Positions 1,512 to 5,691 of a DNA stretch of 5,691 nucleotides are shown here, in pieces. Position 1 is the first letter of the stretch. Each line of letters starts with the position of its first letter. A program made the translations under genes and the position numbers. Source of the DNA: a virus. Its lineage: Duplodnaviria; Heunggongvirae; Uroviricota; Caudoviricetes. Under the pieces are notes generated by a model that was given only the letters and a program-made list of their open reading frames with translations, did not search any database and was not told the origin of the DNA. The stretch is taken from IMG/VR virus record IMGVR_UViG_2703718869_000017. One strand, given 5' to 3'.

Positions 1512-2255
1512 ATGACACAGACTGAATCAGCGATTCTGGCGCATGCCCGGCGGTGTGCGCCTGCGGAGTCGTGCGGCTTCGTGGTGAGAACGCCGGAGGG
1601 GGAGCGGTATATCCCTTGTGTGAATATCTCTGCAGAGCCGGAGGCGTATTTTCGTATTGCACCGGAAGACTGGCTGCGGGCAGAGATGCAGGGGGAGATT
1701 GTGGCACTGGTCCACAGCCATCCCGGTGGCCTGCCCTGGCTGAGCGAGGCCGACCGGCGGCTGCAGATAAAAAGTGCACTGTCCTGGTGGCTGGTCTGCC
1801 GGGGGGAAATTCATAAATTCCGCTGTGTGCCACATCTGACAGGACGGCGCTTTGAGCACGGGGTGACGGACTGTTACACCCTGTTCCGGGATGCATACCA
1901 TCTGGCGGGGATAACGCTGCCGGATTTTGTGCGTGAGGATGACTGGTGGCGCAACGGTCAGAACCTGTACCTGGACAATATGGAGGCCACCGGCTTTTGC
2001 CGGGTGTCCCTGTCCCGTGCACAGGCGGGCGATATCCTGCTGTGCTGCTTTGGCGCATCGGTGGCCAATCATGCCGCCATTTACTGCGGCAACGGTGAAC
2101 TGCTTCACCATCTGCCTGAACAACTGAGTAAACGGGAGAGGTATTCCGAAAAATGGCAACGACGAACGCATTCTGTCTGGCGTCACCGCCACTGGCACGC
2201 ATCTGCCTTCACGGGGATTTGCAACGATTTGGCCGCCGCCTCAGCCTGTACGTGA
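1512..2255 (+). CDS. K: Tail tip assembly protein K; N-terminal MPN/JAMM-like domain plus C-terminal NlpC/P60 (C40) peptidase-like domain, 247 aa from the first ATG
   Basis: MTQTESAILAHARRCAPAESCGFVV... matches lambda K-region translation as recalled. JAMM-type motif H-x-H-x7-S-x2-D (HSHPGGLPWLSEAD, nt 1713-1754) and NlpC/P60-type catalytic Cys context (GVTDCYTLF, Cys codon 1872-1874) are present. First ATG at 1512, 10 nt after the L stop, with no strong SD; an alternative internal ATG at 1686 would give 189 aa. Stop TGA 2253-2255. Confidence 0.85.
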   Translation: MTQTESAILAHARRCAPAESCGFVVRTPEGERYIPCVNISAEPEAYFRIAPEDWLRAEMQGEIVALVHSHPGGLPWLSEADRRLQIKSALSWWLVCRGEIHKFRCVPHLTGRRFEHGVTDCYTLFRDAYHLAGITLPDFVREDDWWRNGQNLYLDNMEATGFCRVSLSRAQAGDILLCCFGASVANHAAIYCGNGELLHHLPEQLSKRERYSEKWQRRTHSVWRHRHWHASAFTGICNDLAAASACT

Positions 2256-2833
2256 ACACGGCAGCGGAAGCCATCCGGGCGCTGTCGTTACAGGTGCCGG
2301 GATTCCGCCGTCAGATGAACGAAGGCTGGTACCAGATACGTATTCGCGGTGAGGACACGGCACCGGAGGCGGTGTACGCCCGTCTTCACGAACCTCTGGG
2401 TGAGGGGGCGGTCATCCATATTGTGCCGCGACTGGCCGGAGCCGGAAAGGGCGGACTGCAGATTGTGCTGGGGGCGGCAGCCATCGTGGGGTCGTTCTTC
2501 ACGGCCGGGGCATCAATGGCGTTATGGGGTTCAGCCCTGGCAGCCGGTGGTTTTTCTGCCACCACGATGCTGTTTTCACTGGGGGCCAGCATGATACTGG
2601 GTGGTGTGGCTCAGATGCTTGCCCCGAAGGCAAAAACACCGGATTACCGCGCAACGGATAACGGCAGACAGAACACGTACTTTTCCTCGCTGGATAACAT
2701 GATTGCCCAGGGGAACCCGATGCCGGTGCCTTACGGGGAAATGCTGGTTGGCTCCCGCCGTATATCCCAGGACATCAGTACCCGTGATGAAGGCGGTGAC
2801 GGGAAGGTGGTGGTTATCGGGCGGCAGGCATAA
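2153..2833 (+). CDS. I: Tail tip assembly protein I, 226 aa
   Basis: MATTNAF.LASP..ARICL.GDLQRFGRR......AAEAIRAL..Q.P.FR......GWYQ.RI.G.D...........HE.L..GAVIHIVPR.AGA..GG.QIVLGAAAI.GSFFTAGA ... GASM.LGGVAQMLAPKA.TP...TDNG.QNTYFSSLDNM.AQGN..PV.YGEM.VGSR..SQ.IST.DEG..G.VVVIGR matches lambda gpI by recollection. Starts inside the 3' end of K in a different frame (103-nt overlap, as in lambda). GGGAGAGG lies at 2134-2141. Stop TAA 2831-2833. Confidence 0.9.
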   Translation: MATTNAFCLASPPLARICLHGDLQRFGRRLSLYVNTAAEAIRALSLQVPGFRRQMNEGWYQIRIRGEDTAPEAVYARLHEPLGEGAVIHIVPRLAGAGKGGLQIVLGAAAIVGSFFTAGASMALWGSALAAGGFSATTMLFSLGASMILGGVAQMLAPKAKTPDYRATDNGRQNTYFSSLDNMIAQGNPMPVPYGEMLVGSRRISQDISTRDEGGDGKVVVIGRQA

Positions 2834-2870
2834 AAGCGAAAAAATCCCGCAGTGACCGAAGGCTGCGGGA
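2831..2870 (-). terminator. Candidate rho-independent terminator oriented for the minus strand, directly after the I stop codon
   Basis: Inverted repeat CCCGCAG (2846-2852) / CTGCGGG (2863-2869) with a 10-nt loop. Read on the minus strand the hairpin is followed by AUUUUUUCGCUUUUA (complement of 2831-2845) and its loop contains C-UUCG-G. On the + strand the hairpin is followed by AACAGAAAAUG, with no U-tract. Confidence 0.5.
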
Positions 2871-2886
2871 ACAGAAAATGAAGATT
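2871..2886. repeat. Left copy of a direct repeat (ACAGAAAATG + AAGAT)
   Basis: The 10-mer ACAGAAAATG at 2871-2880 is identical to 2961-2970; the following AAGAT also recurs after a 2-nt TG insertion in the right copy. Confidence 0.55.
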
Positions 2887-2960
2887 AACCACAGGGAGTT
2901 TTGTTTTTATTGGCCCGAAAAAACTGTAACGCCCGGGAATGATATCTGCCACGGGGGCGT

Positions 2961-2978
2961 ACAGAAAATGTGAAGATA
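2961..2978. repeat. Right copy of the direct repeat (ACAGAAAATG + TG + AAGAT)
   Basis: Identical 10-mer 90 bp downstream of the left copy. In this copy the ATG is immediately followed by TGA. Confidence 0.55.
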
Positions 2979-3003
2979 TTCAGAATTTTTATTCAGTCAT
3001 GAT

Positions 3004-3039
3004 ACAGGCATCCTCCGGGATGCCTGTTGTTTTTGTGCG
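3004..3039 (+). terminator. Candidate rho-independent terminator or attenuator hairpin on the + strand, ~30 nt upstream of the J start codon
   Basis: Perfect 10-bp inverted repeat ACAGGCATCC (3004-3013) / GGATGCCTGT (3018-3027) with 4-nt loop TCCG, followed by TGTTTTTGTG (3028-3037). On the minus strand the same hairpin is followed by AUCAUGACUG, with no U-tract. Confidence 0.5.
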
Positions 3040-3068
3040 TAACAGTTATCACAGTAAAGGGTGAGACA

Positions 3069-5691
3069 ATGGGCAAAGGTGGCGGCAGGGCGCACACGCC
3101 GGTTGAGGCAAAGGACAATCTTAAGTCCACGCAGATGATGAGCGTGATTGACGCCATCGGTGAGGGACCGGTGGAAGGTCCGGTGAAGGGGCTGCAGAGT
3201 ATCCTGGTGAACAAAACCCCGCTGACGGACACGGACGGTAATCCTGTGATAAACGGTGTGACTGCGGTCTGGCGTGCCGGGGAGCAGGAGCAGACACCAC
3301 CGGAAGGTTTTGAGTCCTCCGGAGCTGAAACCGCACTGGGCGTGGAAGTGACGAAGGCAAAGCCGGTGACGCGCACCATTACGTCCGCGAACATTGACCG
3401 CCTGCGGGTCACCTTCGGGGTGCAGTCACTGGTGGAGACCACCTCAAAGGGCGACCGTAATCCCTCTTCTGTCCGACTGCTGATTCAGTTGCAGCGTAAC
3501 GGTAACTGGGTGACGGAAAAGGATGTCACCATTAACGGCAAGACCACCTCACAGTACCTGGCGTCGGTGATTCTGGAGAATCTGCCTGAGCGGCCCTTTA
3601 ACATCCGGATGGTCCGGGAGACAGCGGACAGCACCACGGACCAGCTGCAGAATAAGACGCTCTGGTCGTCATACACCGAAATCATCGATGTGAAACAGTG
3701 CTACCCGAACACGGCCATTGTGGGGCTGCAGGTGGATGCGGAGCAGTTTGGCGGTCAGCAGATGACGGTGAACTACCATATCCGCGGTCGCATCATCCAG
3801 GTACCGTCAAACTATGACCCGGAAAAACGCACGTACAGCGGCATCTGGGACGGCAGCCTGAAACCGGCATACAGCAACAACCCTGCCTGGTGCCTGTGGG
3901 ACATGCTGACTCACCCGCGCTACGGCATGGGAAAACGTCTGGGGGCGGCAGACGTGGACAAATGGGCGCTGTATGCCATTGCGCAGTACTGCGACCAGAC
4001 GGTCCCGGATGGTTTCGGGGGCACAGAGCCGCGGATGACCTTTAATGCGTACCTGTCACAACAGCGTAAGGCGTGGGACGTTCTCAGTGATTTCTGCTCG
4101 GCGATGCGCTGTATGCCGGTATGGAACGGCCAGACGCTGACGTTCGTTCAGGACCGTCCGTCGGATGTGGTGTGGCCGTACACCAACAGCGATGTGGTGG
4201 TGGATGATAACGGCGTGGGGTTCCGCTACAGCTTCAGCGCCCTGAAGGACCGCCACACGGCGGTGGAGGTGAATTACACCGACCCGCAGAACGGCTGGCA
4301 GACCTCCACGGAACTGGTGGAAGACCCGGAAGCCATACTGCGCTACGGGCGCAACCTGCTGAAGATGGATGCGTTCGGTTGCACCAGTCGCGGTCAGGCC
4401 CACCGTGCCGGGCTGTGGGTGATAAAGACCGGACTGCTGAAGCAGACGGTGGATTTCACGCTCGGGTCACAGGGGCTGCGTCACACACCCGGTGACATTA
4501 TTGAAATCTGTGATAACGACTATGCCGGGACCATGACCGGCGGACGTATCCTGTCCATCGATGCCGCCAGCCGCACCCTGACACTGGACCGTGAGGTGAC
4601 CCTGCCGGAGACAGGTGCCGCCACGGTGAACCTGATTAACGGCAGCGGTAAGCCGGTGAGTGTGGACATCACCGCACACCCCGCGCCGGACCGGATACAG
4701 GTCAGTACCCTGCCGGATGGCGTGGAGACATACGGTGTGTGGGGACTCTCCCTGCCGTCACTGCGTCGTCGCCTGTTCCGCTGTGTCTCCATCCGGGAAA
4801 ACACGGACGGCACCTTTGCCATCACGGCAGTGCAGCACGTACCGGAAAAAGAAGCCATCGTGGATAACGGGGCGCACTTTGACGGCGACCAGAGCGGCAC
4901 CCTGAACAGCGTCATCCCGCCGGCAGTGCAGCACCTGACGGTGGAGGTGAGCGCGGCTGACGGCCAGTATCTGGCACAGGCGAAATGGGACACGCCGCGG
5001 GTGGTGAAGGGTGTGCGCTTCAGTCTGCGCCTGACCAGCGGAAGCGGAGAAGACAGACGTCTGGTGACCACCGCCATCACTGCGGATACAGAGCACCGTT
5101 TCAGTGGTCTGCCGCCCGGGGAATACACCCTGACAGTCAGGGCAATTAACAGTTATGGCCAGCAGGGCGAACCGGCCACCACCACGTTCAGGATTAATGC
5201 ACCTGCGGTACCCGCCACGATTGAGCTGACACCGGGCTATTTTCAGATAACAGCGGTCCCGCGTCTTGCGGTGTATGACCCGACGGTACAGTTTGAGTTC
5301 TGGTTTTCGGAGACAAAAATCGCAGACACATCTCAGGTGGAAACCTCTGCCCGTTATCTGGGGACCGGCAGTCAGTGGAGTGTATCCGGCCCGCACATTA
5401 AGCCCGGGAAGGATTTCTGGTTTTATGTGCGCAGCGTCAACCTGGTGGGGAAATCTGCTTTTGTGGAAGCCAGTGGCCGGGCCAGCAATGATGCAGAAGG
5501 GTATCTGGGGCTGTTTCGGGAAAAAATAGGAAAACTGCATCTGGCTCAGGGGCTGTGGGAGCTGATAGACAACAGCCAGCTTGCGGATGAGATGGCGGAG
5601 ATGAAGACCAGCATCACCGAAACCCGCAATGAAATCACACAGACGGTCAGTAAAACACTGGAGAACCAGAGCGCCACCATACAGCAGATAC
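3069..5691 (+). CDS. J: Host specificity protein J (central tail fibre / tip attachment protein), N-terminal ~874 codons; 3' end lies outside the window
   Basis: ATG at 3069 is the first ATG after an in-frame TGA at 3000-3002; AAGGGTGAG lies upstream. The frame stays open to the window end. Translation [39 protein letters not shown]...[15 protein letters not shown]...[33 protein letters not shown]...[24 protein letters not shown]...[16 protein letters not shown]...[38 protein letters not shown]... is colinear with lambda gpJ as recalled, including FN3-like repeats. Confidence 0.94.

Follow-up and report, generated by a model that had tools for sequence, protein, structure and literature searches.

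The stretch of DNA analysed here (referred to below as the window) comprises 5,691 nucleotides of IMG/VR virus record IMGVR_UViG_2703718869_000017 (Caudoviricetes) and covers part of a phage late operon in which the tail assembly gene I is followed on the same strand by the host-specificity gene J. With the ATG of J at 3069-3071, the spacer between the two genes extends from 2834 to 3068 and is 235 nt in length. The features located in and around this spacer are presented in Table 1.

Table 1. Features of the I-J region, with positions and strands as in the window.
Feature	Position	Strand	Remarks
Tail assembly gene I	2153..2833	+	Stop codon TAA 2831-2833; Pfam PF06805 Lambda_tail_I, E-value 3e-15; RefSeq "tail assembly protein" at an identical locus
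pasB/EcOnc22-type intrinsic terminator	2839..2869	-	Stem CCCGCAG/CTGCGGG (2846-2852/2863-2869), then A and U6 on the minus strand
pasB/EcOnc22-24 homologue, Hfq-dependent sRNA antisense to the late operon	2839..2918	-	5′ end inferred by alignment to the mapped E2348/69 RNA
Putative pasB core promoter	2923..2951	-	-10 TACAGT (2928 to 2923) with weak -35; alternative upstream -10 TATCAT (2944 to 2939)
Near-invariant block	2969..3003	.	Upstream of the pasB promoter; CRP-like TGTGA-N6-TCAGA (2969-2984) and A/T-rich stretch; putative function
Hairpin	3004..3027	+	10-bp stem 3004-3013/3018-3027; loop TCCG 3014-3017
U-rich tail	3028..3037	+	TGTTTTTGTG; GTTTT invariant in 20 distinct variants; mosaic breakpoint at the 3′ end of the tail
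J leader	3038..3068	+	Shine-Dalgarno-like AAGGGTGAG at about 3057-3065; varies among phages, column identity 0.71
J (tail tip/host-specificity), 5′ part	3069..5691	+	Runs off the window; Pfam FNIII-A_GpJ, Ig_J, Phage-tail_3; RefSeq gpJ

Read along the + strand from 3004 to 3037, the hairpin and its tail consist of ACAGGCATCC (3004-3013), TCCG (3014-3017), GGATGCCTGT (3018-3027), and TGTTTTTGTG (3028-3037). All ten base pairs of the stem are perfect, six of them being G-C, the loop has 4 nt, and the tail, UGUUUUUGUG, lies on the late-operon strand 31 nt ahead of the start of J. The original prediction had described just such a structure, a perfect 10-bp stem with a 4-nt loop and UGUUUUUGUG tail between I and J on the late strand, and both the sequence and its folding confirmed it. 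The fold of the RNA has a free energy of -19.9 to -20.2 kcal/mol (z = -3.8 to -4.0), with 0-1 of 200 shuffled sequences being as stable. The anatomy is that of an intrinsic terminator, the stem being G+C-rich and within the range of about 5-14 bp with a short loop, and the U-rich tract, UGUUUUUGUG, beginning 0-2 nt after it; the tract is imperfect, with a G at tail position 2. A terminator scan ranked the hairpin as the best terminator-like site of the window, which has 10 such sites in total against 4.3 ± 1.9 in shuffled sequences, with four of these in the interval 2500-3400 against 0.9 ± 0.9. On the minus strand the stem also forms (-17.9 kcal/mol), but it is followed by AUCAUGAC with no U-run, so that the hairpin is of a one-way, + strand terminator type. 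It is worth mentioning that a second + strand terminator-like site is present at 664-693, possessing an 8-bp stem (GGCATGGT/ACCGTGCC) followed by TTTTTGTGGC, and lies inside a coding ORF (462-803).

When the 242-nt spacer sequence was folded, the hairpin remained intact and stood alone in both the MFE and centroid structures. It had been proposed that it might act as an attenuator, but no conserved alternative pairing of the anti-terminator kind expected of attenuators and riboswitches was seen in these folds. Apart from the stem, the U-tract was seen to pair only with 2957-2967, which varies among the spacers. No Rfam family matched anywhere in the window at E-value ≤ 1.

The original prediction missed what the spacer contains on its opposite strand, which is a known Hfq-dependent sRNA gene, PasB/EcOnc22-24. 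The minus strand of the window from 2918 to 2839 is 81% identical to PasB of EPEC E2348/69, an 83-nt Hfq-dependent sRNA (NC_011601, 1466343..1466261, minus strand) reported in PMC8550237 (table S6). In E2348/69, too, PasB is encoded between I and J, antisense to the late operon and 6 nt past the stop codon of I. The probe used for its Northern blot, AATCCCGCAGTGATCGCGGAGCT, maps to window positions 2843-2864. EcOnc22, 23, and 24 of EHEC are given as about 85 nt in length and as destabilised without Hfq (PMC4104026, table S2). The EcOnc22/23/24 probe corresponds to the late-sense strand of the I-J spacer of Sakai Sp15, and it is by this probe sequence that EcOnc22 was placed in Sakai. The T-tract of the Sp15 copy is at about 2902733-2902741 of NC_002695.2 (minus strand), and Sakai has I-J spacers in Sp11 and Sp14 as well. 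EcOnc22/23/24 and PasB are evidently one family, and expression of both PasB and EcOnc22 has been reported from Northern blots (PMC8550237 and PMC4104026).

The terminator of pasB was also picked up by the scan, as a minus-strand terminator-like site overlapping 2839..2869; among 29 spacer variants its stem columns are 0.985 identical, with a variable loop. In two more divergent islands (L098 and L102) this stem is CCCACAG/CTGTGGG in place of CCCGCAG/CTGCGGG, a compensatory change; both keep the + strand hairpin, whose flank GTCATGA is altered to GTCAACAGA or GTCAGCAGA. The hairpin itself is not part of the PasB transcript, as it occupies 3004-3027 on the + strand and PasB runs from about 2918 to 2839 on the minus strand; it lies 85 nt beyond the PasB 5′ end, upstream of the PasB promoter region. 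With regard to the literature, the PasB row in table S6 of PMC8550237 is without a note of an EHEC homologue, such as is given in the PasA and PasD rows, and the term "EcOnc" is absent from the available text of the 2026 Pas preprint (bioRxiv 10.64898/2026.05.13.724894). No mention of the hairpin was found in the searchable text of these two PasB papers (PMC8550237; bioRxiv 10.64898/2026.05.13.724894), nor in the examined passages of the Hfq-CRAC paper (PMC4104026), and it appears to be undescribed, but of a well-known terminator kind.

Four variant types of the spacer were read by eye, and each has a -10-like TANNNT at the equivalent position. In the E2348-type variant the alternative promoter has the form TTCACA-16-TATAAT, with a scan score of 11/12 in locus L021; neither candidate pasB promoter was detected by the promoter scan of the window. 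For E2348/69, the start predicted from the -10 differs by no more than 1-2 nt from the PasB 5′ end given by RNA-seq, and pasB of the window would probably start at about 2916.

The block upstream of this promoter region has a column identity of 0.925 compared to 0.69-0.71 in the neighboring segments. It includes a CRP-like sequence, AAATGTGAagatatTCAGAATT, at 2966-2987 (core 2969-2984), which agrees at 9 of 10 core positions and is near-invariant among the spacer variants. This is the sole match in the window to TGTGAN6TCACA with up to one mismatch, where 0.21 matches are expected by chance, and it is centred near -60.5 from the putative pasB start, a class I-like position. The conditions used in the study of PasB were reportedly LB at 27°C as non-activating and glucose-containing DMEM at 37°C as activating. 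PasB was reported to be higher in the non-activating than in the activating growth condition (PMC8550237). Such a difference would fit with catabolite control, if the non-activating condition is one without glucose. The candidate CRP site finds no mention in the examined portions of the PasB and EcOnc literature. One locus (L123, about 385-640) has both block and hairpin intact, but to the left of the block pasB gives way to unrelated sequence, which by eye looks like the beginning (5′ end) of a transposase gene of the IS3 family on the minus strand.

For comparison of the spacer among related phages, 80 IMG/VR loci were found via the I protein, giving 40 distinct spacers. Spacer length ranges from 235 to 852 nt among the loci examined, and 29 short spacers (235-261 nt) have a common layout, consisting of the minus-strand terminator, a variable sRNA body, a variable core promoter, the near-invariant block, the hairpin, and the T-tract. 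Following these are three unrelated J leaders, each of which begins directly after the T-tract, so that hairpin and T-tract behave as the end of a module. Mosaic junctions flank the island on both sides. The I-J spacer is a moron-like sRNA island, of which the hairpin is the J-proximal border. In the J leader of the window the Shine-Dalgarno-like AAGGGTGAG is found roughly 20 nt past the T-tract. Leaders of one type (TTCAGACATCAGACAGG) possess the heptamer CAGACAT, mostly in one copy but in three copies in L006 and L080, making it a copy-number-variable repeat just ahead of the J ribosome-binding site.

In the 29 short spacers, the hairpin arms have a mean column identity of 0.91-0.93, the T-tract one of 0.92, and the upstream block one of 0.925, compared to 0.71 in both the sRNA body and the J leader and 0.69 in the core promoter; the aligned loci are close relatives with I proteins 96-100% identical, and their conservation is partly one of shared ancestry. 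A survey blind to the hairpin was also conducted, in which IMG/VR was queried with the conserved upstream block and not with the hairpin sequence. The hairpin was found 3′ of the block in 176 of 177 occurrences; the remaining copy has a 1-nt deletion, yet folds at -21.7 kcal/mol. A search for the exact hairpin pattern in one genome per species returned eight matches, none of them in Enterobacteriaceae (Thalassospira, Asaia, rumen and other MAGs), and these are taken to be due to chance.

Covariation was examined in a set of 20 distinct 48-mers. Pairing is present in 98.5% of the stem cells (197/200), compared to 33-49% when the partners are slid. One stem pair is compensatory, changing from C-G to U-A in six cells with U.G intermediates seen, and nine further cells have G.U or U.G wobbles, equal to A.C mismatches on the other strand, the reverse pattern occurring in one cell. 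The loop sequence varies freely. Two covariation measures were no better than shuffles for these 20 variants. The pairing agrees with maintenance of the structure by selection on the transcribed strand, in a set of modest diversity, and the covariation and wobbles favor a + strand RNA structure; with limited diversity and related sequences, they are supportive of this and not proof.

Other forms of the spacer help to assign these elements. In tandem spacers (L093, L106, L130, L143, L170) there are two sRNA modules, both with the upstream block, and a single + strand hairpin at the J end. The block would accordingly seem to belong to each minus-strand promoter and the hairpin to the boundary between island and J. 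The second tandem module (L093, about 9870-10200) has the terminator CTCCCG...CGGGAG and a different body, but shares the upstream block; it has the look of a paralogue of PasB not described before. An 852-nt spacer (L003, 873-1724; also L005, L008, L010, and others) keeps the 3′ part of pasB, with the pasB promoter and the hairpin replaced by a minus-strand gene for Cu/Zn superoxide dismutase (sodC; Pfam Sod_Cu, E-value 4e-32) that has its own 10-bp terminator. As this variant is without the hairpin, the latter is not needed for expression of J. A 343-nt spacer (L021, 2345-2525) carries an unrelated 12-bp bidirectional hairpin after the upstream block, in place of the conserved one (-27 kcal/mol, z -6.2), and beyond it a minus-strand promoter-like site, TTGCCA-18-TATCCT (2492 to 2463). 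Between them, these could delimit another RNA on the minus strand, about 70 nt long and close to the start of J. The L021 hairpin was considered as an independent replacement terminator and was dropped as such; since it is bidirectional and may end another minus-strand RNA, it does not discriminate between explanations.

The I-J spacer was found in 706 of 5426 complete E. coli genomes (about 13%), with a median of three copies and a maximum of nine, and in 150 phage records, mostly Stx-converting phages. Carriers of the PasB/EcOnc22 island are mostly EHEC and EPEC, often in multicopy. The description of the hairpin as an unusual element to find before J does not agree with these numbers. Phages with the hairpin ahead of J include Stx-converting phages and PhiR12_4, whose record gives E. 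coli C as host. As inducible, viable, plaque-forming phages carry it before the essential gene J, late transcription must read through it. In lambdoid late operons, Q-modified polymerase from pR′ is terminator-resistant (PMC7547250), and we infer that Q antitermination provides the read-through here. The original prediction of a terminator passed with the help of Q is supported in part, by terminator anatomy, conservation with covariation, and plaque-forming carriers, with the part played by Q being probable.

In records of the lambda, HK630, and mEp460 type, similarity to the query begins only where J coding starts (query positions 99-110). I and J abut in lambda. The hairpin is dispensable for the phage, as it is missing from the 852-nt sodC variant and the lambda/HK630-type records match only from J coding. 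The spacer thus has one of the marks of a moron, being additional DNA that separates two genes which are neighbors in related phages. The other, an own promoter and terminator with expression in the lysogen, is present for the minus-strand sRNA, and the + strand hairpin is an extra feature.

Several known systems resemble this arrangement in part. Morons, in the account attributed to Juhala and colleagues in 2000, are said to be typically bracketed by their own promoter and terminator. The classic moron has the order promoter, gene, terminator, and an extra terminator on the late strand is no part of that description. Like morons, the I-J island is extra DNA between two genes that is expressed in the prophage, and the same I-J site also takes the minus-strand sodC; unlike them, its cargo is an antisense non-coding sRNA and it has an additional, oppositely facing terminator on the late strand. 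PMC4104026 cites Juhala et al. (2000) on the morons of lambdoid phages, and the abstract of "The moron comes of age" (PMC3594210) describes morons as independent transcriptional units. PasB and EcOnc22/23/24 share the I-J spacer with the hairpin, which is present beside the upstream block of pasB in 176 of the 177 copies examined, but they are on the opposite strand and end at the I side (2839-2869).

The terminator tR′ downstream of pR′ (lambda 6S RNA; StxS in Stx phages, PMC7547250) is, like the hairpin, a G+C-rich stem-loop with a U-tract on the late strand, and both are expected to stop unmodified polymerase and to pass Q-modified polymerase. However, tR′ is promoter-proximal, just after pR′, and its terminated product is abundant and Hfq-bound (StxS), whereas the hairpin is located deep in the tail genes between I and J. 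AgvB/AsxR and HnrS (EcOnc01-03, EcOnc10-12) are, like the island, multicopy sRNA loci of EHEC and EPEC prophages with intrinsic terminators and up to nine copies per genome (PMC4104026). Identity with AgvB/AsxR, considered for its multicopy prophage context, was rejected on account of its location at the pR′ moron site. Likewise HnrS (EcOnc10-12, up to nine copies) was rejected, its Sp9 and Sp10 copies being about 5 kb from EcOnc03 and EcOnc01a of the pR′ site and not at I-J.

It is probable, though not by much, that the hairpin and U-tract are a Rho-independent terminator-type element on the late-operon strand, marking the J-side border of the PasB/EcOnc22 island. The ends of the island would then bear outward-facing terminators, that of pasB at I and the hairpin at J. 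In the lysogen, unmodified polymerase moving rightward through the island would be stopped before J, and the rightward transcripts concerned may be stray, read-through, or divergent from the island promoter region. Following induction, Q-modified polymerase from pR′ would ignore the hairpin and J would still be made. No + strand promoter-like sites were detected by the promoter scan in the window, and RNA-seq counts of I and J in EPEC are very low. Nothing that would drive rightward transcription in the lysogen was thus identified, and the need for such insulation is hypothetical. Term-seq of EHEC Sakai exists (PMC7547250), along with dRNA-seq data from that study (GEO GSE143631). A specialist would not be surprised by a terminator at this location, and the residual interest comes from its unusually high conservation.

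Other explanations account for some of the same observations. One that we regard as unlikely is that the hairpin governs the stability or processing of the late polycistronic mRNA, setting the I:J ratio with the polymerase not stopped. Were the message cut in the spacer, possibly by RNase III acting on a duplex of PasB and late mRNA, the stem-loop would shield either the ...K-I segment at its 3′ end or the J segment on its 5′ side. Selection of the structure at the RNA level on the + strand agrees with this, as do the separateness of the hairpin in both folds (MFE and centroid) of the complete spacer and the production of the perfectly complementary PasB 85 nt upstream in the same spacer. However, the invariant GTTTT tail is needed by a terminator and not by a protective stem-loop, and J is expressed without the hairpin in the sodC variant, while lambda-type phages match nothing upstream of J coding. 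It is similarly unlikely, in our estimate, that the hairpin is a mere passenger, a leftover terminator that travelled with the island and has no present function, its conserved look being derived from recent kinship and from lambdoid modules recombining at conserved junctions. The I proteins of 96-100% identity in the aligned loci fit with this, together with the mosaic junctions on both sides of the island and the lack of Enterobacteriaceae among the eight species-representative matches to the exact pattern. On the other hand, the hairpin is better conserved than the adjoining sRNA body, core promoter, and J leader, and changes in its stem are compensatory or wobbles, with 197 of 200 cells paired and an indel in only 1 of 177 copies.

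The hairpin was also suggested to be the 3′ end of a small + strand transcript, an idea which is likewise unlikely. Such an RNA would start inside the island, divergent from pasB, or derive from the I 3′ UTR of late transcripts stopping here. Its body would be the 35-nt block (2969-3003), with the hairpin and U-tail as an Hfq-type 3′ end. The stretch 2969-3037 is indeed the most conserved of the spacer and has an sRNA-like layout, with a single-stranded A/U-rich region and then a terminator, and a variable upstream with a conserved 3′ part resembles the AgvB/AsxR class (PMC4104026). Nevertheless, the scan gave no + strand promoter-like site in the window. The -10 candidates seen on this strand by eye (AATGAT 2938, GATATT 2975, TTTTAT 2987, and TGnGAAGAT) were rejected, being without a -35, without an A at position 2, or not conserved. 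The block is also kept before the first module of the tandem spacers, where no hairpin comes next, and this fits an element upstream of the promoter of the minus-strand sRNA. In uninduced cells, the Hfq-CRAC data (PMC4104026) name only the antisense EcOnc22-24 near this position, with reads in the Sakai interval ECs2942..ECs2945 that contains the spacer having a strand bias of about 100:1 (21313 vs. 235, 21528 vs. 195, and 33250 vs. 390). Likewise, no fragment at the hairpin (14664xx) is among those in the listed part of the EPEC RIL-seq table, again from uninduced cultures. Signs of the promoter, discrete transcript, and Hfq binding expected of an Hfq-dependent sRNA were thus not seen for the + strand in the scan and in these uninduced-culture listings. 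A two-strand RNA switch, in which some late polymerases stop at the hairpin and release an I-3′ UTR RNA with the full PasB complement, the 35-nt block, and an Hfq-type 3′ end, seems very doubtful; PasB would be sponged or destroyed by the released RNA, or the latter would itself function as an sRNA, such that induction would cancel a lysogen-specific PasB regulon. Least probable of all is a site acting at the DNA level, with the 10-bp inverted repeat, which lies upstream of the pasB promoter, being bound by a dimeric protein or serving in recombination or cruciform formation. A perfect palindrome about 88-111 bp upstream of the putative pasB start and beside the CRP-like site would suit this, but changes in the arms preserve pairing, those of G.U type destroy DNA symmetry, the loop changes freely, and the conserved T-tract would be without a role. 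A small ORF beginning with ATG at 2999 (21 codons) was rejected, as it has no Shine-Dalgarno sequence and is not conserved, with the reading frame shifted in E2348/69 and the start codon gone from L098 and L102.

For annotators, the hairpin gives a precise right-hand boundary to the PasB/EcOnc22 island. The practical gain is modest, being better prophage annotation and a handle on the dependence of J and PasB on the hairpin. If the hairpin does terminate, it shows how an sRNA island fits inside an essential late operon. Transcription of the island would be halted before running antisense into I, rightward transcription that is not antiterminated would be halted before J, and antitermination by Q would render the island transparent in lytic growth.
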